Assembly: GCA_964442805.1 (NCBI GenBank)
Contig: CAYUAM010000001.1
Location: forward strand, 1-25,412
Source: an uncultured Anaerolineales bacterium
GTDB lineage: Bacteria > Chloroflexota > Anaerolineae > UBA7937
Direction: 5' to 3'
DNA length: 25,412 nt
Shown here: one piece after another, positions 4,110-23,941 of the stretch
How the letters are laid out: every line of letters starts with the position of its first letter
How positions within the stretch are numbered: the stretch's first letter is position 1
Program-made: the position numbers and the translations under genes
The notes under the pieces: model-generated
What the model was told of the DNA's origin: nothing
Database searches by the model: none
The model's input: only the letters and a program-made list of their open reading frames with translations

Positions 4110-5124
4110 TACTCGTTCAGTCGGGGTCTTCCCGTCCAGAGCCTGATGGGGTCGGAAATGGTTGTAAGTCCATTCCCACTCTTGAAGGGCTCGATTGAGG
4201 TGGACCACCTCCATATCTCCATCATAGATCTCGTGGAACTCCTCAGTGTGGGTCCTTTGGGCTCTCGCCACATGGCCATTTAGTTTGGGGGAGCGGGGTG
4301 GCAGGACGAAAAGTCGTATCCCTCGCTCCTGACAAGCCTCTTCAAAGGCGGCCTGGAATTCAGAGCCCCCATCTACCGGCAAGGCCTTTATGGGAAAAGG
4401 CATTCGTTTAGCCAGGGTCTCCAGGAAGCCCACCGCGGTAGCAGAGGTGGCTTTGGTCTGCACCTCCATCACATCCCAACGAGAGACCACATCCCGGGCG
4501 GTGAATTGCTTCAGTACCACTCCTGGCATGAGTCGCACATCCAAAGTATCCACCTCCACCAACTCTCCTGGGATCTCCACCTGGTAGCCCTGGGGCTTGC
4601 GTATGGCGTAGGGGCGAGGATACTGTCGTCTGCGGACGGAAACCCTGTTCCTTACAGACTCTTTGAGCACCCCGCGGGCCTTGGGGTGAGTGAGGATACG
4701 CCCCACCATGGAGGTAGAGACCGGCCAGCCCTCCCGCCTCAGGAGCACCACCAACTTGTCCTTCCCCCAGCGGGGATACTCTTCCCGCAGGTGGAGCACC
4801 GCCTGGGCCAATTCCATACTCCAGGTGGGCCGACGGAGGTTTTTGGGCCTCCGGCTCTTCTCTTCCAATCCCCTGGCCCCTTCCTTTTTGAGCCTCTTCT
4901 GTCAACGGTAGTGCGTTCGCATCCTGAGGATGCTCAGCATCCGAAGGAAGGGTGGAGCGGGAGATGAAGAGAGTCTGGCTGGCCTGGCTGCTAGAGAGAC
5001 CCTGCGCTCTCAGGGCCTCGAAGCAGCGCAGCCAGCGCAGCCTTTCCTGGGCCTTGGGGCTCAGCACGATTGGCCTATGACGGGAGAGGTAGTAAAATGC
5101 TCTGGGTAGTCCAACTACCTGCAT
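4110..5124 (-). pseudogene. IS481/integrase-core DDE transposase pseudogene
   Basis: HTH N-terminus in one frame and rve core (VEVDTLD, VDGGSEF, NGHVARAQRT) in another. Lesions: 37-bp insertion, TGA at 4902-4904 where YRW is expected, catalytic E replaced by A (VER to VAR), C-terminus cut after KTP. Confidence 0.85.
4911..4947. repeat. 37-bp palindromic insertion inside the transposase
   Basis: GTGCGTTCGCATCCTGAGGATGCTCAGCATCCGAAGG contains overlapping inverted repeats GCATCC-TGA-GGATGC and GGATGC-TCA-GCATCC. Removing it restores the frame ...RSTL-YR*QKRLKKEGARGLEEKSRRP. Confidence 0.65.
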
Positions 5125-5726
5125 GAGGGGCCACCTCCTTCTGTGGATGTCTCACCCATCCGTCAAGGATCCCTGTGGGAGAAGCATGGCCCCTTTTGCC
5201 TATCCCTGCAACTGTCTCACATCTTTCTGAACGAGATCAAATGGCGCGAATGGCCGGCAGGGCGTGGCGGAACGGAACTAGTTACATAGAGGTTCTACCC
5301 TTAGGGGAGTAAAGATTCTTACGGTCAGGGAGTTGGTAGACCCGGTGATTATCGTCTTTGTTTGGTGGAATTGCAGCGTATATGGCTGTGCGGGATGAAA
5401 ATGAAGTCGAGCTACAAAGGGTAGCTTGCTTGTGATCGGGGCAAGATCCTAAACCATCTACCTATGGCTGGCCTTCAACATCTGGGGCGTGATCGTAACT
5501 CACATGGGTCTGCAATAAGGCTATCTGAAGGAAATCCCCTGCCCAGTTTCCTGAGCTTGTGCTTCACCAAGCTCGTCTCGCAACTAGAATGGCAAATCTT
5601 GTGCCTCTTTGACGGCTACCATTTCCGCCTCCACCTTGGTCGGGCAGATCTGAAGCGACACTCGGTGGGTGAGGCAGTCTCAGGCCAAAGAGGTGGCCTC
5701 CTGCTAGGCTCCGTAGCTGCTGCAGA

Positions 5727-5998
5727 TCAGAGTTTGACGTGCTCCAGAATGTAATCGAAGGTTTGTCGTCCAGATCCTCTATGGGAGAATAGTACCCTTG
5801 AGTGGTGGTGACGCTGGCATGCCATGCGGCTCTCTGTACCCTAAACACCGTGACCCCGCCATCGATGGCCAGAGTGACAAAGGTGTGTCGCCGGACGTGG
5901 GGATGAATCTCCTTAGGGTCCAGCCCTACCCGCTTAGCTTACCACCTGACCAGTCTTACCATTGCTCTTGTGGAGGTCGCCTTATCCGAGGCTGGAAG
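5727..5998 (-). pseudogene. Tyrosine recombinase/integrase C-terminal remnant
   Basis: Reads RLVRW*AKRVGLDPKEIHPHVRRHTFVTLAIDGGVTVFRVQRAAWHASVTTTQGY, a degenerate HxLRH...GH...TTxxY box II. It has an internal stop and a late frameshift, and the N-terminus is missing. Confidence 0.75.
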
Positions 5999-6637
5999 AT
6001 TTTAAACTCCATCCTTCTTTCTCGCCTGACGGTAGGTACAACCAAGTTGAACCGCCCAATGCCCAACCGAAAGAGGTTTGATGCGTATGTTCATCATGGT
6101 ACAATAGTGACATGGGGCTGGGCGGTGGCCCAGCCCTTGGCGACTAGGATTCTCTACGGCAGGAGAAAACGCAAGGGCCCTCAGAAACTCTTACTCTGGC
6201 TGCGGATGCGCCTCTTGTCTGTGACCGTTTCATTGGCTACCATCCTACATGACCAGCTCCGGTTGCCATCTTTGGACACTTTCATTTGGAGGCCTTTCAT
6301 CAGAATCTGCCCAGCAACCCAGGCTGGCACAGATCGCCTGCCTTCTCTCCTTTCCTGCGAAATCCGAACGTGTAGGGACTTTTCCCGCCGCAGTGGTCAT
6401 TGACTTGATAGAGGTTATGGGCTATAATCTGTGCACCGTTCGAGCATGCGCAGCAGTGGATGGCTCACTCAGAAGAGAAGAGCACAACTCAAGCCCTAAG
6501 TTCTCACCGTGATGTGCTTAGGTTAGGAAAGCCCGCCGATCATATGAACTCAAAAAGTTGAAAGCTCAGATGGAGCCGTAGGCGCTAATGGTATTGCTTT
6601 CCATAATCATCTTGGCCCGGAGGATGTAATAGACCGA

Positions 6638-6684
6638 ATCTTAACCAGATCTTAACCTTCAGATGAGTCGAACTCGGGTAGAAT
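6638..6684 (+). promoter_or_regulatory. Putative activator-dependent promoter with 11-bp-period direct repeat
   Basis: ATCTTAACC at 6638-6646 and 6649-6657 overlaps the -35 position of a TAGAAT -10 (6679-6684), just upstream of the riboswitch. Confidence 0.45.
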
Positions 6685-6730
6685 TATCTGTCGAGCAGTG
6701 AATTTTGCTTGCCCTCATGGCTAAATGAGG

Positions 6731-6825
6731 AAGATAACTCCGAAAAGGCAAACTCGTCGAAAGGCGAGGGTGCAAAGCCACGGGTCCTGACTTTCTGGAT
6801 AACCGGGCTGCCGAAGAGATTTCTT
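6731..6825 (+). ncRNA. Cyclic di-GMP-I (GEMM) riboswitch aptamer
   Basis: GGCAAAC (6747-6753), stem CTCGTC-GAAA-GGCGAG, GCAAAGCC (6772-6779), P3 CGGGTCC...GGATAACCG, and 3' GGGCTGCCGA match the GEMM consensus. Confidence 0.9.
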
Positions 6826-6840
6826 CGGCAGCCCTTTTTT
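6805..6840 (+). terminator. Intrinsic terminator forming the riboswitch expression platform
   Basis: Perfect 13-bp stem GGGCTGCCGAAGA / TCTTCGGCAGCCC followed by T6; the 5' arm overlaps the aptamer 3' end. Confidence 0.88.
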
Positions 6841-6914
6841 GTTTCTGTTCCGTCATCTCCAGCATCTAGAGATAGTGAAGTTGGTGTATAAGAGAGAGGG
6901 GAAGGTCTTCTTCT

Positions 6915-6988
6915 AAACAACAAAGGGCACCGCTCAGGCCGCCAAGCTCTCACGGTGCCCTGCCTAGATTGGGAAACCCAATCGGCTA
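6915..6988 (-). ncRNA. Putative ~75-nt small RNA
   Basis: Lies downstream of a near-consensus minus-strand promoter. Hairpin GATTGGG-TTT-CCCAATC (6967-6983), then a 9-bp stem AGGGCACCG/CGGTGCCCT (6924-6961) with a TTGTTGTTT tail. Confidence 0.5.
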
Positions 6989-6994
6989 TTTCGT

Positions 6995-7023
6995 ATTATA
7001 CCTCAAAATTATCAAGAGGTCAA
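6995..7023 (-). promoter_or_regulatory. sigma70-type promoter, minus strand
   Basis: TTGACC-17 bp-TATAAT. Confidence 0.7.
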
Positions 7024-7200
7024 GGGCAGGTGAGCTCAGACATCTTTAAGAGATGCGGTCTATTTTGTCGGGAGATGAGTCACGAATTTGAATGGGTGCC
7101 CAGGCTAGGGCCGTAATAGATCAGGAAATTAGAACACCTTCAGTCAAAGGCTGTATCGGATTTCAAGTCTGGGAAAAGGAGCACAAAGGAGAGGAAGAAA

Positions 7201-7800
7201 ATGACCAGGGCGGTAAGGTGTCCTCATTGTCTTTCTGTTGTCAGGGCTCAGATTAATGAGAGGTGCCGGTGCCCCTCATGTGGGGGATATTTCTTCGTCG
7301 CGAACCCAAGCCGAGCCCTCCTTGGCCCCTGCAGAAATCTCTATTCCATACCTCGAGGGAACCAGCGGCCAAGACGGGGAATGGCTAGGACGAGGAGTGG
7401 GGTGGGGTATGGTCCAATCCTTCAGGGGCCGGGGTACCAAGACGGGCTGGGGAGGTGGAACTCTATCATCTCCGGCGCCTGGCCGGCCACGTGTCAGGGC
7501 AGGCCAGGCGTACCAGGCCGAGGAACGATTATCGAGCCTTCCTTATATCCCAAGGAGCCGGAATGGGAGATAATTGACGGCAACCCTGATTATCAATTGA
7601 TTATCGATTTTCCATATCATCGGGATCAGGAGATAGCCGTGGAGACTGAGGGTGGGATCTTAGCAATCCGAAGTCTCAAAGAGGATGCTCCTCCTCGCTA
7701 TCACATCGAGTTTGCCCTTCCGCCGGAGGTTGTCGAAAAGAGCCTTAGCCGGGTGTTCAATAACGGCTCTCTGATCTTGCGCTTTGACAAGAAGGAGTAG
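7201..7800 (+). CDS. Zinc-ribbon / disordered linker / Hsp20-like (alpha-crystallin) domain protein
   Basis: RBS AAGGAG. N-terminal CPHC...CRCPSC, R/G/P-rich middle, and C-terminal EPEWEII...YQLIIDFP...EFALPPEV...[12 protein letters not shown] resembling the Hsp20 beta-sandwich. Confidence 0.65.
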
Positions 7801-7821
7801 GTAACCAGCAGCCCGAGATTG

Positions 7822-8028
7822 ATCGTGGGCCGCTCGCTTCTGCGGGTCGCTCAGGACCTCGTAGGCGGCGTTTATCTCCTTCGTTCTCTCCGCCGACTTG
7901 AGGTCCTTGTTTACGTCGGGACGATATTTCCGTGCGAGCCACCTGTAGGCTTGCTCAATAACCTCCGACCGAGCCTGTGGATGCACTTGGAGAATATCAC
8001 AGTAGTCTAGAGAGCTATAAATCGGTCT
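7822..8028 (-). pseudogene. J-domain (DnaJ N-terminal) remnant
   Basis: Reads [36 protein letters not shown]...[22 protein letters not shown] is changed to RPD and DYY to DYC. There is an in-frame TAG upstream (8029-8031) and no ATG before helix I. Confidence 0.75.
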
Positions 8029-8130: not shown

Positions 8131-8159
8131 TTGACAAAGTTGTCATCTTGTGCTATCAT
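8131..8159 (+). promoter_or_regulatory. sigma70-type promoter with overlapping palindrome
   Basis: TTGACA-17 bp-TATCAT with extended TG; inverted repeat TGACAA-AG-TTGTCA (8132-8145) covers the -35. Confidence 0.8.
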
Positions 8160-9056: not shown

Positions 9057-9596
9057 GTGGCTGACGAAAGAAGGAAGAGAGAAACAAGAATATCTGAGGA
9101 TGACACCAGCATCGGTCTAGGCCTTGGTGGCCTCTTCAAGGGGCTAGGCAACTTCATCGAGTTGCTATCCGAGATGGTCGAGGAGGGAGAATCTGAGATT
9201 ACCCGCCAGGGAGAATTCAAGATCAAAGGCCTGGAGAAGGCGCGAGGGGTCTATGGATTCACTGTGAAAACTGGCCTGGGCGGTATTCCTCGTGTCGAGT
9301 CTTTCGGCAACATTCGAGAGACGGAGAGAGGGCCCATAGTTACTGAGACGCGAGAACCCTTAGTCGATATTTTCGATGAAGGGGAAGTGATCCTCGTGCT
9401 GGTGGAATTGCCCGGAGTAGACGAGGAGGAGATAGAGGTCGATCTTCAGGGTGACGTCCTTTCCCTCTCCACCAAGGGGGAGAGGAAATACGTCAAGGAG
9501 ATGTTGCTTCCGCATCTTGTCGACCCGGCGACACTGACTACCAGTTACAGGAACGGGATCCTAGAACTGCGGGTCAACAAGGCGAAAGGTGGCTAG
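9057..9596 (+). CDS. hsp20: Hsp20/alpha-crystallin small heat shock protein, archaeal type (GvpH-like)
   Basis: GTG start with RBS AGGAGGTG; motifs VYGFTVK...FGNIR...REPLVDIFDEG...VELPGV...YRNGILE. Confidence 0.9.
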   Translation: MADERRKRETRISEDDTSIGLGLGGLFKGLGNFIELLSEMVEEGESEITRQGEFKIKGLEKARGVYGFTVKTGLGGIPRVESFGNIRETERGPIVTETREPLVDIFDEGEVILVLVELPGVDEEEIEVDLQGDVLSLSTKGERKYVKEMLLPHLVDPATLTTSYRNGILELRVNKAKGG

Positions 9597-10331: not shown

Positions 10332-10419
10332 TCTCCTTTTCTTGTTTGCTTAAAAGATGGATGGGAGGTGCGGGTATGCAAATGATGGGGATAACGGGAT
10401 GTGGAGGAGGGAGGTTCCC

Positions 10420-12591
10420 ATGACTAGGAAGGACAAAAAAGAAGAGGGGGTCCTGACTTTGCGGGTTGCAGAAGGGCAGAGCAAGGATGTTGGAAGGGGC
10501 ATTGCCCGCATCGACCCCCAGGATTTCGAGAGGATCGGGGCGGCGATCGGCGATATCGTCGCTATCACCGGGAAGAGAACGACCGTGGCCAAGATCATGC
10601 CTGCCTATCACGCCGACCGAGGAAAAGGCATCGTGCAGATCGACGGCATAATTCGAGAGAACGCTCAAGCCAGTCTAGACGAAAAGGTCCGTATTCACAA
10701 GGTTGATCACCAGATAGCCAAGCAGCTCACCTTGGCCCCTCTGGGCTCGGGGCGGACTCTGCCTCGAGGGTCGGATAGCCGCTACGTTGGAAGGTTGCTC
10801 GAAGGGCTAGTTATCACTGAAGGGGATCGGGTTCGCGTCAACCTCTTCGGTACCCGCTCCGTGGATTTCACCGTGACCGATACCTCTCCTGAGGGCATGG
10901 TTATGGTGGCAGCAGCCACGATCACCAAGATCGAGGGGGAAGGGGCGGAGAGGGAGCGGGGGCTGAAGGTCTCCTATGAGGATATTGGGGGGCTGGGCAA
11001 GGAGATTCACCGCATCCGAGAGATGATCGAGTTGCCATTGAAATACCCTGAGGTCTTCGATCGGTTGGGCATCGAAGCACCAAAGGGCGTCTTGCTACAT
11101 GGCCCTCCGGGCTGCGGCAAGACCCTTATCGCCCGCGCCGTGGCCTCGGAAACATCTGCTCATTTCTTTCCCGTCAACGGCCCGGAGATCATCCACAAGT
11201 TCTACGGTGAGAGCGAGGCGCACCTACGGGAGATCTTCGAGCAAGCGAGCCGCAATGCGCCGAGCATCATCTTCCTAGATGAGATCGACGCTATCGCTCC
11301 CAAACGGGAGGAGGTACATGGCGAGGTGGAGAAACGGGTGGTGGCCCAGCTTTTGGCCCTGATGGATGGCTTGAAGTCCCGAGGCGAAGTGATAGTCATC
11401 GGGGCCACCAACATCCCGAACTCTTTGGACTCTGCTCTACGTCGTCCAGGCCGCTTCGACCGGGAGATCACCATCAGCATCCCGGACAAGAATGGCCGTC
11501 TGGAGATATTGGAGATACACACTAGAGGAATGCCCCTTGCTGATGATGTGGATCTGGAAAGACTGGCCGAGATCACCCACGGCTTCGTGGGAGCTGACCT
11601 GGAGGCTTTGTGCCGCGAAGCGGCCATGATCACCTTGCGTCAACTGATGCCGGATATCGACTTCGCTAAGTCTCACATCCCCTACGAGCGGCTGCTGGAA
11701 TTAGAGGTGACCATGGACAATTTCCTGACCGCTCTAGGAGAGGTCGAACCATCGGCCATCCGTGAGGTCTTCACTGAGGTTCCCGATGTCAGATGGGAGG
11801 ACATTGGGGGCTTGGAGGAGGTCAAGGAGATACTGAAGGAAACTGTTGAATGGCCTCTCAAGTACCCTGAGCTCTTCGCACAGGCCAAGACCGCGCCGCC
11901 TAAAGGGATACTTCTGTACGGGCCGCCGGGCACAGGCAAGACGCTTTTGGCCAAAGGGGTAGCCAACGAAAGCGAAGTGAATTTCATCTCCGTCAAGGGC
12001 CCGGCGCTCATGTCTAAGTGGATGGGGGAGAGCGAAAAGGGGGTGCGTGAGGTATTTAAGAAGGCCCGGCAAGCAGCACCCTGTATCATCTTCTTCGACG
12101 AGATCGATGCCCTAGCCCCCATACGGGGCTATGGCGGCGGAGACTCCCATGTGGCTGAGCGGGTGGTCAGCCAGTTTTTGACGGAGATGGACGGCATTGA
12201 GGAACTGAAAGGGGTAATCGTCTTGGCCGCCACTAACCGTTTGGACATCATCGACCCAGCATTGTTACGTCCTGGCAGGTTCGATGTGCTCATCGAGTTG
12301 CCCCTCCCCGACCGTGAGGCCCGTGAGGCGATCTTCAAGATCCATACCAAGGACAAACCCCTGGCTTCCGATGTTGACCTGAGGATCTTGACGGATATGA
12401 CCGAGGGCTCAGTGGGAGCGGACATCGAATCGATCTGTCGCCAGGCCTCGATGTTAGCCATTCGAGAGTTTCTCAATGAGGAGGTCGACTCTAAATCGTA
12501 TGAGAGTTTTCAGATCACCATGCGACATTTCCGCCAGGCGATAGAAATGGCCGGGAAACTGGCCTCGCCGGGACCATTGACGAAGGGTTAG
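10420..12591 (+). CDS. cdc48: CDC48/p97/VAT-family double AAA+ ATPase
   Basis: ATG 10420 with RBS GGAGG. N-domain [18 protein letters not shown]; Walker A GPPGCGKT and GPPGTGKT; Walker B FLDEID and FFDEID; two RPGRFD arginine-finger motifs. Confidence 0.96.
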
Positions 12592-12617
12592 ACATAGGGA
12601 AGAGTTTGTGGTATAAT
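12589..12617 (+). promoter_or_regulatory. Strong sigma70-type promoter P1 at the end of cdc48
   Basis: TAGACA-17 bp-TATAAT with extended TG. Confidence 0.8.
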
Positions 12618-12623
12618 GTTATT

Positions 12624-12830
12624 GGTATTTCTTCCATTTTTGAGATTAGATATCTTGCTTGTTAGGGTCAGATCCTCGAGATCTAGTGAGGTCGATGAGA
12701 CAGCGTTGGTGTTGAGTGCGCCCCTTCCTGGAGGAAGGTGTCTACCCCAGCGATGACGACTCTCGCCAGGAAGGTCTTTTCGAGGGTCTGACGGAGTGAC
12801 CCCGTCGCAAAGACGGGGTCACTCATTTTT
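12624..12830 (+). ncRNA. Putative structured ncRNA or leader, unit 1 (unassigned family)
   Basis: Lies between promoter P1 and a terminator. 15-bp closing stem 12667-12681/12778-12792 plus nested stems; no credible ORF. Confidence 0.55.
12794..12830 (+). terminator. Intrinsic terminator
   Basis: Perfect 13-bp stem GAGTGACCCCGTC / GACGGGGTCACTC, then ATTTTT. Confidence 0.85.
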
Positions 12831-12968: not shown

Positions 12969-13290
12969 TGAATTTGATGAATTTGAGGACTTCCTCTCAT
13001 GACAAAATAGACCCTCTGAAAGGGGAGGGGTGAAGCCAGGGGTGTAAGATGAAAGCAGGCTAGGGTAACCAGCCAGATTACCGCCGCGGGCTCGGCGGCG
13101 AAGAGGATGCTTCGTCAATCTCTTCTGGTGTGGTTGTCCTTCGGTTGGCTTTCTAGTGGGGGAGAGTGCTTCGTGTTAAGGAGTCTGACAAGTACCTCAT
13201 TGAATCTGTGCACTCCTTACTCGGTTAGCTCATTTTGCAGAGGTTTTGAGCCATCTTGACCTTATTGGGTTGAGATGGCTCTTTTTCTTT
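12969..13290 (+). ncRNA. Putative structured ncRNA or leader, unit 2 (unassigned family)
   Basis: Lies between promoter P2 and a terminator. Multibranch pairing: 12993-13010/13229-13243, 13032-13039/13145-13152, 13062-13077/13124-13140, 13177-13184/13212-13219. Confidence 0.55.
13248..13290 (+). terminator. Intrinsic terminator upstream of gvpA
   Basis: GAGCCATCTTGACC / GGTTGAGATGGCTC (14 bp with G-U pairs), then TTTTCTTT. Confidence 0.85.
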
Positions 13291-13507: not shown

Positions 13508-13720
13508 GTGGCAGTGGAGAAGGCTATCGCGTCCTCGAGCCTGGTCGAAGTTGTCGACCGGGTCTTGGACAAGGGGATCGTGATTGATGCTTGGGCCAGG
13601 ATCTCCCTGGTGGGCATCGAGATACTAGCCCTCGAGGCCAGGGTCGTGGTCGCTGGGGTAGACACCTTCCTCAAGTACGCCGAGGCCATCGGCTTGACGC
13701 CGCTGGCTGCACCGGCCTAG
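13508..13720 (+). CDS. gvpA: Major gas vesicle structural protein GvpA, copy 1
   Basis: 70 aa, [56 protein letters not shown]; GTG start with RBS AGGAGGTG. Confidence 0.98.
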
Positions 13721-13797: not shown

Positions 13798-14010
13798 ATG
13801 GCAGTGGAGAAGGCTATCGGGTCCTCGAGCCTGGTCGAAGTTATCGACCGGGTCTTGGACAAGGGGATCGTGATCGATGCTTGGGCCAGGATCTCCCTGG
13901 TGGGCATCGAGATACTAGCCCTCGAGGCCAGGGTCGTGGTCGCTGGGGTAGACACCTTCCTCAAGTACGCTGAAGCCATCGGCTTAACCCCCTTGGCTGC
14001 TCCGGCGTAG
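13798..14010 (+). CDS. gvpA: Major gas vesicle structural protein GvpA, copy 2
   Basis: 68/70 aa identical to copy 1; the RBS region is duplicated as well. Confidence 0.98.
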
Positions 14011-16533: not shown

Positions 16534-17094
16534 ATGACAAGGGATAAGGAGAAGAAGCGGGATGAAATGGAGGCCATAGACCTGGGCGGTCTCTTCAAGG
16601 GGATCGGCGATCTCATCGAGTTGGTCTCAGGGATGGTGGAGAAGGTGGATCTAGCCAACCTCGATGAAGAGACCCTCTCTAGGCTGCGGCGAGCCAGCCA
16701 GAGCGGGGTCGTAGGAGCACCGAGAAGCGTCTACGGCGTCTCGATACAGCGAGGAGTGGGTGGCATCTCCAGGGTGCAGCCCTTCGGCAATATCCGCCGC
16801 ACCGAGAGAGGCCCTGTCGTTGAGGAGGTGAGGGAGCCCCTCACCGATCTCTTCGAGGAGGATGATCTACTCTTGGTCGTTGCTGAGTTGCCCGGCGTGG
16901 AGGAGAAGGAGATACGGATCGAAATCGAGGACGACACTCTCAAATTCTCCTCCACCGGAAAGAGGAAATACGCCAAGGGACTTCCCCTTCCTTTTCCTGT
17001 CGACGAGAGCACCATGGAGACCACCTACAAGAACGGCATCTTGGAGATCAAGTTGGGCAAGAGAAGCGAGCCGGATGAGGAGAAAACCGAGTGA
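16534..17094 (+). CDS. hsp20: Hsp20/alpha-crystallin protein, paralog of 9057-9596
   Basis: [14 protein letters not shown]...[27 protein letters not shown]...AELPGV...YKNGILE; its stop overlaps the dnaK start (GTGA). Confidence 0.9.
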
Positions 17095-18923
17095 GTAAGG
17101 CGATCGGCATCGACCTGGGAACCACGAATTCGGTGATGGCGGTGATGGAGGCGGGCAGGCCCATGGTCATCCCCAATACGGAGGGCAGCCGCCTCCTCCC
17201 TTCAGTGGTAGCCATCGACGGAAAAGGCGAACGGCTGGTGGGGGAGGTGGCCAAATGGCAAGCCATCATCAATCCCCACAATACGGTCTTCTCCATTAAA
17301 CGTTTCATGGGGCGAAAATTATCCGATGCTTCTGTGCAATATGACAAGGCGCTGGTGCCCTACGAATTGACCGCTGCCGACAACGGCGATCTCCGGATAG
17401 TCATCAAAGGCCGGGGGTACCCACCGCCGGAGATTTCGGCCATGATTCTGCAGAAGTTGAAACGCGATGCCGAGATGTACCTGGGCGAGCCGGTCACTCG
17501 GGCGGTGATCACCGTGCCAGCCTACTTTAACGATAGCCAACGCCAGGCAACTAAAGAGGCGGGGCGAATAGCCGGGCTCGAGGTATTGCGCATCATCAAC
17601 GAGCCCACCGCCTCGGCTCTAGCCTATGATTTTCCCCACGAGAAGCGGGAGACCATCGCCGTCTACGACCTGGGCGGGGGAACCTTCGATATCTCCGTCC
17701 TAGATCTGAGCGCTGGCGTCTTCGAAGTCCTCTCCACCAGCGGCGATACCCATCTGGGTGGGGATGACCTAGACAGAAGGACCATCGAATGGCTCTGCGA
17801 TGGTTTCTTGGAGGAGGAGGACATCGACCTGCGAGAGGACAGGGTAGCCTTGCAAAGACTCAGGGTAGCAGCAGAGCAGGCCAAGATCGAACTCTCGGCC
17901 GCGCAGCAGGCCCAGATCGATCTACCCTTCATTGCTAGAGATGGCAATGACCCCAAGCATCTCAATGTCACCCTCAGCCGCTCGAAATTAGAGCAGTTGG
18001 TGGGCGATCTGATCGAGAGGACCATCGAGCCCTGCTGGCAAGCGTTGGCGGATGCTGGTCTCAGGGTTTCTGATGTGGATCATGTGATCCTGGTGGGCGG
18101 TCAGACGAGGATGCCTCTCGTGGTGCGTACCGTTCGTGAACTCTTCGGGAAGGAGCCCCACCGGGATATCAACCCCGATGAGGTAGTTGCGCTGGGAGCC
18201 GGTATCCAAGCCGGGGTTTTGACCGGCGATGTGAAAGGGGTGCTCCTCATCGATGTCACCCCCTTGACGCTGGGCATAGAGACCTCGGGCGGCGTGGCCA
18301 GCCCCCTCATCCCGCGCAACACCACCATCCCCACTCGCAGGAGCCAGGTCTTCACTACTGCCAGGGATGACCAGAGTAGTGTGGAGATACACGTGATGCA
18401 GGGCGAGCGGGCCATGGCCGTGGAGAATATGACCCTGGGTCGCTTTGTCTTGGAAGGTATCCACCCCGCGCCGCGCGGCGAGCCCAAGATCGAGGTCACT
18501 TTCCAGATCGACGCCGACGGCATCTTGCAGGTTACTGCTCAGGACCAGGCCACAGGTAAGGAACAGCAGATCACCGTCGCCGCTTCCAGCGGCCTCTCAG
18601 AGAAGGAGATCAAGTGCATGGTCAAGGAGGCGAAGGAGTACGCCGAGCGGGACAGAGAGCGACGCGAGGAGATCGAGATCCTCAACCGAGCCGACAGGCT
18701 GGCCTACCGCGCCGAGAAGACGTTGCAGCGGTATGGCGATGACGTGCCGCCAGCCGTCAGGAGGGAGATGAAGAGCAAGGTAGCGGCTCTGCGCGAGGCG
18801 CTGAAGGAAGGAGAGATCCCTGCCGTGAAGAACGCCTGGCAAGGGCTAATTGAGACGGCAGAGAAGATCGCGGCTTGGCTTGATGAGGAGCCGATGGAAA
18901 TAGCACCGCCTCTAGATAGATGA
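17091..18923 (+). CDS. dnaK: Hsp70 chaperone DnaK (cluster-specific paralog)
   Basis: [31 protein letters not shown], linker [12 protein letters not shown]; 610 aa with a short C-tail; no grpE or dnaJ adjacent. Confidence 0.97.
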
Positions 18924-18939
18924 GATGGAGGATGAGGGC

Positions 18940-20019
18940 ATGGCAGAGGAGGCCAAGTATATTTACGGAGTGATCCAGAACGGAGGGAGAAGGACCTTCG
19001 GCTCTATTGGTATAGGTGGACGGGGAGATGAAGTGTATGTGGTCCCCTGTCAGGATTTGGCTGCGGTGGTCAGCGATTGCCCAGCCATAGATTACAAGGC
19101 GGTAAAGGAGAAGGAGAAGATAGTCCGTGATCTGGCGGCACATCAACGCGTGACCGAAGAGGTCATGAAGCACTGTTCCATCCTACCCATGAAGTTCGGC
19201 ACCATGGTGGAGGAGGAGAAGGAGGTGGAAAGCGTATTGCGTCAAGGGTATTTCAACCTCAAGGAGGCTCAGGCCGCCTTCCAGGACAAGGTTGAGGTAG
19301 AAGTGGTGGTCACCTGGGACCTCACTTCCGTCTTCCAGGAAGTTGGCAACGAGGAGCCCATCGCCAAATTGAGAGCCAAGACGGAGGGTAGACCGGGCTT
19401 AAGAGGACTAAACGATAGGATCAACCTGGGCAAGATAGTATATGAATCTCTATCTCGCAGGCGGGAAGATCATCAAAGAGAGATAGTTGAAGTTCTCGCT
19501 AACTGTTCCATCGATAGGCAAAAGAACGCTCTCATGGATGATAGTTTTGTGATGAACGTGGCCTTTCTCATCGATAAGGAGCGACAGGATGAGTTCGATG
19601 AGAGGCTTGAGGAGTTGGATAAGGGAATGGGTGGCGCTTTGAACTTCCGACGCATCGGGCCCCTGCCTCCCTATAGTTTTGCCACCATCGAGGTGCGGCC
19701 TATGACTCACCAAGAGGTCAAGGGGGCCAGGGAGTTATTGGGCCTGGGTGAGAAGGCCAGCCTAGGGGAAATAAAGGAGGCCTACTATGACCTGGCTCAG
19801 GAGTGTCACCCTGATGCCCAGCCGGACGGCAATGCAGGAGAGCGCTTTACCCAAATCGCCCAGGCCTATGAGTTGCTAAAGAGCTACTGTTTGGGACAGG
19901 CAGCGGCCCAAGGAATCACCTCTAAGAAGGCAGCTGCCGAGTATTCTTGCTCCTTTACTCCGGCGGCCATTGAGGAAGGCGTTCTGGTCACCATCAAGCG
20001 TTTGGGGAGAGAGACCTGA
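18940..20019 (+). CDS. gvpF: GvpF/GvpL-family protein with C-terminal J-domain
   Basis: KYIYGVI...LPMKFGT...VEVEV...GPLPPYSF, then ELLGLGEKASLGEIKEAYYDLAQECHPD...FTQIAQAYELL with intact HPD at 19807-19815. Confidence 0.88.
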   Translation: MAEEAKYIYGVIQNGGRRTFGSIGIGGRGDEVYVVPCQDLAAVVSDCPAIDYKAVKEKEKIVRDLAAHQRVTEEVMKHCSILPMKFGTMVEEEKEVESVLRQGYFNLKEAQAAFQDKVEVEVVVTWDLTSVFQEVGNEEPIAKLRAKTEGRPGLRGLNDRINLGKIVYESLSRRREDHQREIVEVLANCSIDRQKNALMDDSFVMNVAFLIDKERQDEFDERLEELDKGMGGALNFRRIGPLPPYSFATIEVRPMTHQEVKGARELLGLGEKASLGEIKEAYYDLAQECHPDAQPDGNAGERFTQIAQAYELLKSYCLGQAAAQGITSKKAAAEYSCSFTPAAIEEGVLVTIKRLGRET

Positions 20020-22849: not shown

Positions 22850-23941
22850 TTGGAAGCAAAAACCGTTCTACTGCCATCGAGTTACAGCAAGGCTACCCTG
22901 GTAGACCTACTGGATAGGGTCTTGGAGAAAGGGCTGGTGATTAACGCCGATATCATCATCTCCGTGGCCGGCATACCGTTGTTAGGGGTTAACCTGAGAG
23001 CGGCTCTGGCGGGCATGGAGACCATGCTGGAATATGGGCTGATGCGCGAGTGGGACGAGCGCACCCGTGAATGGGAGCGGAAACATATCGAAAAGAGGGG
23101 ACCGCACCTATTGGCTGAAGAGGAGATCCTCTTACTGATGTATGGGGCCCATTGGCATAGCAAAGGCATCTACCGCGCTTGGCGGCCTGGACACCTCTAC
23201 CTCACCAACAAGAGGCTATTTCTGTTTCGCAGCGAGCCTGGGGAGATGCTCTTTGAGACCCCCCTGGAGAAGATCAAAGCCTTGGCTATCCGGAGAGAGA
23301 CTCACTTCACGGGCATCGAAAGAGATATGGTTTACGTCGCTCTCAACCCTGAAAGGCTAGCCTACCTCTGCGCTGAGAGGCCAAGGGAACTTCAAGAGGC
23401 CATTCGCAGGAGAATAGAGGCCTTAGGCCTTCCCTTGGATGAGAGCCCTGGGCTTTCTCCCCTCGATGCGGAGATAGATGGGCTCCTTGGGGAAGATGAG
23501 ATAACCGCTGAAGCCAAGATGTGGTATCAACTCCCCCCCTCTGGCATCAGGGGAGAGAGATGGGGACCAGGTCGGTTGTATCTGACCAATAAGCGTCTCT
23601 TTTGGCGGTGCCATGAGGATCGCAAGATACCATTCGAGATCCCCCTCGCCGAGATAAGGGGGGCCAGGATGGAGAGGAGGGATCTAGGAGGGCTGATAAG
23701 GGAAAGGCCTGTTCTTTGCCTCTCTTACGGAAACCCCTTGGGCGCGAAAAGGGCTCTCTTTGTGGGGGATGATCTGACCGAGTGGGAGAAGGCCATCAAC
23801 CGCATCGTTGGGGAGATGGAGAGCTGTCCTCGTTGTGAACGCCGTGCTCCTACAAGACGGTTGTTAGAGAGGGGATGTCCTGACTGTGGCTGGGTGAGTC
23901 CCTGCCGGAGAGACGAAGCCTCGCCCCCGTTGGCGAGATAG
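22850..23941 (+). CDS. GvpJ-like domain fused to two GRAM/PH-like repeats and a zinc ribbon
   Basis: [44 protein letters not shown]; two repeats W(R/G)PG(H/R)LYLTNKRLF...FE(T/I)PL(E/A)(K/E)I; CPRC-x13-CPDCGW. Confidence 0.82.
   Translation: MEAKTVLLPSSYSKATLVDLLDRVLEKGLVINADIIISVAGIPLLGVNLRAALAGMETMLEYGLMREWDERTREWERKHIEKRGPHLLAEEEILLLMYGAHWHSKGIYRAWRPGHLYLTNKRLFLFRSEPGEMLFETPLEKIKALAIRRETHFTGIERDMVYVALNPERLAYLCAERPRELQEAIRRRIEALGLPLDESPGLSPLDAEIDGLLGEDEITAEAKMWYQLPPSGIRGERWGPGRLYLTNKRLFWRCHEDRKIPFEIPLAEIRGARMERRDLGGLIRERPVLCLSYGNPLGAKRALFVGDDLTEWEKAINRIVGEMESCPRCERRAPTRRLLERGCPDCGWVSPCRRDEASPPLAR

Follow-up and report, generated by a model that had tools for sequence, protein, structure and literature searches.

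In bacteria, the choice between a free-living and an attached life is signaled mainly by the second messenger c-di-GMP, and gas vesicles are the main non-flagellar means of changing position in the water column. An earlier note on the DNA considered here (25,412 nt from an uncultured Anaerolineales bacterium; hereafter, the window) had read a c-di-GMP-I riboswitch at the head of a gas-vesicle (gvp) and chaperone region, which raises the question of whether the element is genuine, in which direction it would switch and which gene it would control. A search of the open-access literature found no paper on a natural riboswitch at a gas-vesicle locus, nor one linking a c-di-GMP riboswitch to buoyancy. 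The reading that we favor, with fair confidence, is a class-I c-di-GMP riboswitch with a canonical pocket, acting as a transcriptional ON switch upstream of the gene at 7201; its ligand, the direction of its response, its transcription start and read-through as far as the ATG are what we infer. The riboswitch class is well known; it is the gene association of the head riboswitch that is new and lineage-specific.

The head aptamer, its terminator and the adjoining gene

An Rfam cmscan search of the whole 25.4-kb window returned a single gathering-level match, at 6738-6816 (+), which covered the full model (1-80) of RF03167, c-di-GMP-I-GGC (73.1 bits vs. a gathering score of 59; E 8.4e-16). A second model of the same Rfam clan (CL00126) also exceeded its own gathering score at this position and was masked by the clan filter. 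The full GEMM-I aptamer described in the earlier note was therefore recovered as a full-length covariance-model match, and the coordinates given for the riboswitch region (6731-6840) were correct. The note had proposed an Infernal comparison with the Rfam c-di-GMP-I model, and here the outcome was divided, i.e., a match from the right clan lay above gathering, but the top model was RF03167 rather than RF01051. Judged by its sequence and predicted fold, 6738-6816 is a genuine class-I c-di-GMP riboswitch.

In the alignment to the model, P1 is formed by 6738-6742 and 6812-6816, a GAAA tetraloop lies at 6759-6762 (GCAA in L092), and the putative pocket bases G6747, A6774, and C6811 occupy the positions of G20, A47, and C92 of Vc2, with U6771-A6802 as the equivalent of the interhelical pair C44-G83. 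G6747 aligns with the invariant G immediately 5' of the G-C/C-G base of the first helix, A6774 follows it at a distance of 27 nt, U6771 lies 3 nt 5' of A6774, and C6811 stands immediately 5' of the P1 3' strand. The corresponding residues are G20, A47, C92, and C44-G83 in Vc2 and G12, A39, C104, and C36-G90 in Vc1 (PMC4744006). The window aptamer shares with both of these the three-helix junction fold, the equivalents of G20, A47, and C92 with identical spacing, an interhelical Watson-Crick pair, and a GNRA tetraloop on the first helix. It differs from them in that its interhelical pair is U-A, whereas theirs is a C-G pair described as universally conserved, in its short P3, which lacks the CUAAG/UAUG receptor, in its output through a directly overlapping intrinsic terminator, and in its setting, the host being a member of the Chloroflexota and the target an sHsp/GvpH-like gene. 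The receptor (CUAAG...UAUG) is present in the RF01051 consensus and in the gvpA-proximal aptamer copies of relatives, and is absent from the RF03167 consensus; the GAAA loop on the first helix is nonetheless retained in the window. We counted the missing receptor against a simple ON-switch reading of the head aptamer. Overall, the head aptamer is a novel member of a well-known class, with the U-A interhelical pair and the lack of a tetraloop receptor as minor structural oddities.

An intrinsic terminator (6805-6845, +), identified by a terminator scan, a repeat finder, and folding, consists of a 13-bp stem at 6805-6834 and a U tract at 6835-6845. Its two 13-nt arms (6805-6817 and 6822-6834) are 100% complementary, with 9 G-C pairs, and enclose a 4-nt loop; TTTTTTGTTT (T6) stands directly 3' of the stem, and the predicted energy of the hairpin is -27.4 kcal/mol (z -6.35 vs. 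shuffles). The earlier note had described a perfect 13-bp terminator that borrows its 5' arm from the aptamer, and indeed 12 of the 13 bases of this arm (6805-6816) lie within the aptamer, where they comprise the final five bases of the P3 3' strand, G6810-C6811 of the junction, and the P1 3' strand in full (6812-6816). When RNAs ending at 6810-6816 were folded, the minimum free energy structure contained both aptamer helices (-29.4 kcal/mol), and for an RNA extending through 6834 the terminator form had an energy of -48.8 kcal/mol vs. -28.7 kcal/mol with the aptamer enforced. Since the terminator can form only by stripping away the 3' strands of P3 and P1, any ligand that holds the junction closed should prevent its formation. 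Read in this way, the overlap of the terminator's 5' arm with the aptamer's 3' end is the predicted architecture of a transcriptional ON switch by direct overlap, with no separate anti-terminator; the note had likewise predicted an ON switch.

In the favored reading, transcription would probably start at a conserved promoter at 6400-6428 or near 6690, and the aptamer would fold immediately upon its synthesis. Without ligand, the 3' arm (6822-6834) would displace the 3' strands of P3 and P1, the terminator would form, and transcription would stop at the U tract near 6840. Bound c-di-GMP would lock P1, P3, and the junction and make the 5' arm of the terminator unavailable, such that the polymerase would continue over the ~365 nt of leader that remain and transcribe one gene, 7201-7800, a member of the gas-vesicle and chaperone cluster at its edge. 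Positive control by this class has a precedent in Vc1, which raises downstream expression with c-di-GMP and is hence an ON switch (PMC4744006).

The likely regulated gene (7201-7800, +) is preceded by a putative ribosome-binding site, GGAGAGG (7188-7194, +), located 6 nt before the ATG by sequence reading and conserved in relatives. BLASTP, hhalign, a PDB profile, and a structure model together describe its product as a zinc ribbon, a linker, and an Hsp20/GvpH-like domain. In the AlphaFold model (mean pLDDT 47), only the zinc ribbon (CPHC...CPSC; pLDDT 83-89) was confident; the linker is disordered and varies by in-frame insertions and deletions, and the C-terminal domain was modeled with low confidence. 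Pfam HSP20 gave no match to the product. BLASTP aligned the protein with the Hsp20/GvpH protein encoded at 9057 (27% identity, E 9e-8), hhalign matched the C-terminal domain to Hsp20/GvpH with a probability of 93.5% (E 2.3e-7), and a PDB profile search returned the sHsp 4rzk (E 0.0056). The earlier designation of this gene as Zn-ribbon-Hsp20 thus stood, with the zinc ribbon as the N-terminus and the Hsp20/GvpH-like part, by profile and BLASTP, as the C-terminus. Relatives of the protein formed 12 clusters in a set of 5.8 billion proteins, all of them from Anaerolineae/Anaerolineales MAGs or metagenomes.

About eight related Anaerolineales MAGs and metagenome contigs have kept the unit of riboswitch and gene. 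In L001, L003, L005, L006, L008, L009, L010, and L097 (L093 is the same contig as L003), this gene again follows the aptamer, and at every locus with enough upstream sequence the distance from aptamer to gene was 340-405 nt. The genes further upstream, in contrast, are unrelated between loci. In the window they are LacI and a solute-binding protein; L005 and L010 have amidohydrolase/SIS/YjbQ at this place, L003 has a tRNA, and L009 has an operon in the opposite orientation. Since the pairing of aptamer and gene is kept while these neighbors differ, the riboswitch travels with the 7201 gene.

On its 3' side, 7201 is separated from the next operon by a convergent DnaJ remnant that retains only the J domain (7660-7986, -), and the next operon has a strong promoter-like site of its own at 8131-8159. 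Because of these two features, the direct target of the riboswitch is most likely a single gene, and probably 7201 alone. The note had cautioned that the riboswitch may not control gvpA directly, listing downstream promoters at 8131, 12589, and 12934; all three promoter-like sites were found, and control probably stops at the convergent DnaJ gene or remnant. In L003, the gene convergent with 7201 is an intact DnaJ-Ig-LysM gene (381 aa, 6733-7878 (-)), while the remnants in L005 and L010 consist of the LysM part. These DnaJ-LysM truncations represent ongoing gene decay inside the cluster.

The leader and its repeated elements

A promoter-like TTGACT-17-TATAAT (11/12) was detected by promoter scan at 6400-6428 (+), at the left edge of the conserved module. 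The homology block common to all lineages begins exactly at this site, and six lineages have it unchanged, L009 and L001 among them although their upstream flanks are unrelated. The leader probably starts at ~6435, which would give it a length of ~765 nt and place the aptamer midway along it. Just 5' of the aptamer, the direct repeats CTTAACC-N4-CTTAACC (6640-6657, +) and a -10-like TAGAAT (6679-6684, +) were noted by sequence reading; both are conserved in all relatives, and the region 6640-6684 may be an alternative promoter of the activator type. This region was not flagged by the sigma-70 scan, which found no sigma-70-like + strand site between 6429 and 8130. Similarly, the terminator scan found no further + strand terminator between the first one and the 7201 ATG.

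Two copies of a ~100-nt repeat flank the aptamer in direct orientation, each with a long hairpin, whose 20-nt loop is conserved, and then a short one. Element A (6470-6580), upstream of the aptamer, is a partly decayed copy; element B (6921-7030), downstream of the terminator, is nearly invariant and has its hairpins at 6925-6960 and 6967-6983. The aptamer and both elements were also recovered in L091. The pair of A and B was confined to this locus among 185,579 species genomes, which rules out a genome-wide repeat, and an Rfam scan of both strands gave no match for either element and hence no support for a known RNA family. On the - strand, element B carries a promoter-like TTGACC-17-TATAAT (11/12) at 7023-6995, detected by promoter scan, and the U-rich tail UUUGUUGUUU after its long hairpin. 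Element B may therefore be a candidate convergent small RNA of ~75 nt on the - strand.

If so, the main output of the riboswitch might be antisense, an alternative that we regard as rather unlikely. Element B would then be the gene of a - strand small RNA (~6988 to 6915), ligand-dependent read-through from the riboswitch would collide with it head-on and make its perfect complement, and c-di-GMP would switch the locus between small RNA and 7201 leader, whether by transcriptional interference or by duplex cleavage; such a mechanism could also act together with the favored ON switch. Consistent with this possibility, the -10 of the - strand promoter-like site is TATAAT in 7 of 8 lineages, the two hairpins and UUUGUUGUUU tail fold on the - strand with -36.8 kcal/mol (z -3.9), the sequence of element B is almost unchanged between variable flanks, and no other riboswitch class is found in antisense arrangements as often as the c-di-GMP class (PMC9943018). 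The - strand fold was more stable than the + strand fold in 18 of 18 copies of A and B, and the same 25 pairs gave 89.0% paired cells on the - strand vs. 80.4% on the +, but the pairs counted were taken from the - strand fold and the comparison is thereby biased, and some wobble positions, including a U-G in element B of L001, favor the + strand. Moreover, the - strand promoter of copy A is poor in most lineages and copy A itself is decayed in the window, neither strand matched Rfam, and the long hairpin would make a weak terminator, its loop being 20 nt and its U tract interrupted.

The favored sense ON switch has to reckon with the spacer of 365 nt between terminator and ATG, a length that we counted against a simple sense-switch model. 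Given the nearly invariant element with a near-consensus opposite-strand promoter that it contains, the leader may be processed, blocked, or used differently. Long leaders with additional elements are found in other systems. In the flgB leader of Clostridioides difficile (~500 nt), the c-di-GMP-I aptamer Cd1 lies early and acts as an OFF switch, and a second, independent element, an invertible DNA switch, is placed between the riboswitch and the first gene. The window resembles this arrangement in its c-di-GMP-I aptamer and in having a second element before the gene, and differs from it in its predicted ON logic and in its repeated hairpin module. By analogy, we looked for an invertible switch in the spacer and found no long inverted repeats flanking it; the 14-nt pair 6831-6844/6915-6928 was rejected as inversion repeats, being merely facing U/A tracts that are not kept in L009. 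In Bacillus thuringiensis, the Bc1 riboswitch is separated from the start codon by 220 nt, has two tandem terminators, and barely responds to c-di-GMP in vivo (PMC11218506). Bc1 is likewise a class-I aptamer that lies unusually far from its start codon, with further regulatory elements in between; however, its terminators do not share an aptamer strand in the manner seen here, whereas the window has one aptamer-fused terminator followed by 365 nt.

Several other features of this region were considered and set aside. The open reading frames over the riboswitch and spacer (6684-6953 (-), 6659-6865 (-), 6709-6891 (+), and 6955-7116 (+)) were ruled out as coding by two out-of-frame indels in relatives, in which the terminator loop has gained 7 nt and the spacer has lost 44 nt. 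ORF 6249-6512 (+) had no Pfam match, and it and a 191-aa gene called in L005 (4984-5559), for which no Pfam is on record, look like translated conserved non-coding DNA. The conserved part of these two calls coincides with the invariant promoter and element A and is probably non-coding. A sigma-54 promoter in 7090-7120 was ruled out, its spacing being wrong and the sequence not conserved.

The long gap also bears on a different explanation, that the riboswitch is uncoupled from 7201 and the gene has its own promoter in 7022-7200. The unit would then make only a short terminated RNA or a longer, ligand-dependent one, either trans-acting or without a target. In MAG W31_47, an IS element lies directly after element B, with the riboswitch on contig 39 and the gene on contig 220. 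The last ~180 nt before the ATG are conserved even in this genome, and the intact gene beyond the IS would agree with 7201 having its own promoter downstream of 7022. However, no sigma-70-like + strand site was found in 6840-7200, riboswitch and gene stay together at loci whose upstream neighbors change, and an outward-facing TTGACA-18-TATCTT, seen by sequence reading at the junction of IS and gene in W31_47, could replace the lost drive. We therefore consider uncoupling from 7201 quite improbable. The IS sequence itself (L092 1-140 (-), L002 1-340), at which the assembly breaks, has terminal repeats and the start of a transposase.

Ligand class and selection on the aptamer

Since the best-scoring model was RF03167, the aptamer could conceivably sense a ligand other than c-di-GMP, i.e., 3',3'-cGAMP or whatever the c-di-GMP-I-GGC variants bind, and its short P3 without a tetraloop receptor agrees with the RF03167 consensus. 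RF03167 was the top-scoring model for the window and for its relatives alike (73-77 bits). To assign the variant, the printed Rfam consensus lines of RF01051 (GGGGACGCAAAgCcAcgG) and RF03167 (GGGGACGCGAAgCcAcGG) were set side by side, and 'GGC' was read from this comparison as G20/G47/C92. A single conserved core base differs between the two (GACGCAAAgCc in RF01051, GACGCGAAgCc in RF03167), namely, the first unpaired base after the closing G-C of the first helix, which by the Vc2/Vc1 spacing rules is the predicted A47 equivalent. At this position, RF03167 has G (GCGAAgCc), whereas the window and all relatives have A (A6774; GCAAAGCC), which rules out membership of the GGC variant.

The choice of model can probably be explained by the short, receptor-less P3 that the window has in common with the RF03167 consensus. 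RF03167 also outscored RF01051 on the aptamer of one relative that carries the canonical GACGCAAAGCC, so that the name of the top model is not diagnostic, and models of a clan are known to recognize the same sequences (PMC9943018). Variants selective for cGAMP (GEMM-Ib) have A at G20 (Kellenberger 2015, Nelson 2015, summarized in PMC7266159); in the window this position is G6747, which is invariant across all lineages and argues against cGAMP specificity. The earlier claim that G6747 corresponds to Vc2 G20 and favors c-di-GMP agreed with the alignment and with the matching Vc2/Vc1 spacings. With the diagnostic G47 absent, the assignment to c-di-GMP stands despite the GGC variant being the top model; as aligned, the pocket of the head aptamer is of the canonical c-di-GMP type, and we consider a different ligand very unlikely.

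Across six lineages, 138 of 138 aptamer pair cells held standard pairs (100%). One G-C pair of the first helix is replaced by A-U, and the interhelical pair, U6771-A6802 in the window, is C-G in the five relatives aligned, both sides having changed with pairing kept. These two double changes are the only covariation, and since the relatives are ~90% identical in coding DNA, the support that they lend is thin; a metagenome search for more diversity matched four contigs, all of known lineages, and did not improve it. The terminator is also kept as a structure in every lineage, with a 7-nt stem extension in four, one C-A mismatch in most, and further changes in L009. Despite the decay of a sister aptamer at 12998-13086 in the same cluster, the idea that the head riboswitch is a non-functional relic can scarcely be credited, given a score well above gathering, pairs all kept with compensatory changes, and a terminator retained throughout. 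Indeed, since the gvpA-proximal orthologous copy has decayed in the window, aptamers that are not under selection evidently decay in this lineage, and the head aptamer has not.

The gas-vesicle cluster and its gvpA-proximal aptamers

The window holds a full gvp cluster, with two gvpA genes (13508-13720 and 13798-14010), a GvpN-like gene, GvpF/L, GvpG, GvpJ-like genes, and GvpK, as well as chaperones, i.e., a CDC48-type AAA ATPase, Hsp70, J domains, and three further Hsp20-like proteins. The CDC48-type protein is a double AAA ATPase (10357-12591), and the Hsp70 gene (17091-18923) lies inside the gvp cluster. Two fusions were also seen in the cluster, GvpL/F with a J domain (18925-20019) and a GvpA/J-type protein with GRAM/PH-like repeats (22850-23941).

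In relatives, intact c-di-GMP-I aptamers occur between the AAA gene and gvpA. L002/L011 have one (6434-6521, 74.8 bits), and L012 has two in tandem (71.9 and 86.6 bits), followed by a decayed third (copies at 4838-4926, 5131-5219, and 5415-5501). In the window, the positional orthologue of these aptamers is a decayed GEMM-I-like element upstream of gvpA (12998-13086, +; 15.4 bits), in which the pocket bases are replaced and which has diverged from its counterpart in L012. The note had suggested that the riboswitch would tie c-di-GMP to flotation genes; the case for such a tie is better in relatives, with their intact gvpA-proximal aptamers, than in the window with its decayed copy. The note's proposed survey of gvp loci likewise had a mixed outcome, with intact aptamers upstream of gvpA in relatives but none in gvp loci of other phyla: a model built from the head aptamer (R1), which recovered the canonical L011 aptamer at 50 bits as a control, found 0 aptamers in 77 gvpN loci from other phyla. 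An Rfam search at gathering level gave 0 matches in 7 Chloroflexota gvp loci. By these comparisons, the association of riboswitch and gas vesicles is real but lineage-specific.

A more elaborate scheme would place the gvp cluster of this lineage under c-di-GMP through several riboswitches, of which one stands at the head and up to two stand in tandem ahead of gvpA; the head riboswitch would act as a sense/antisense toggle on a previously undescribed small RNA, B, with the paralogous copy A on the far side of the aptamer. We hold this scheme to be speculative and give it little chance of being right as a whole. The plausible link between c-di-GMP and buoyancy, made by sequence alone, is directly testable, and the lineage offers natural controls in the window's decayed aptamer upstream of gvpA and in the IS between switch and gene in W31_47. 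For gas-vesicle engineering, the predicted wiring of the head riboswitch points to a zinc-ribbon/sHsp-like accessory protein whose dosage would be controlled separately from the rest of the cluster.

Some minor features of the gvpA-proximal region were also observed. Each intact gvpA-proximal unit has its own promoter-like site and, further on, a long hairpin and U tract that lie clear of the aptamer. In L012, a gene for an IclR-family regulator (5779-6576) lies between the riboswitch array and gvpA, and the window has none at this position. In the window, the promoter-like site at 12589-12617 (+, 11/12) overlaps the stop codon of the AAA gene, and a strong terminator (12794-12824) follows ~200 nt on. 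The sequence at 12700-12790 is nearly identical in L002 and L012 and could be a small RNA, a tiny ORF, or the 3' UTR of an operon.
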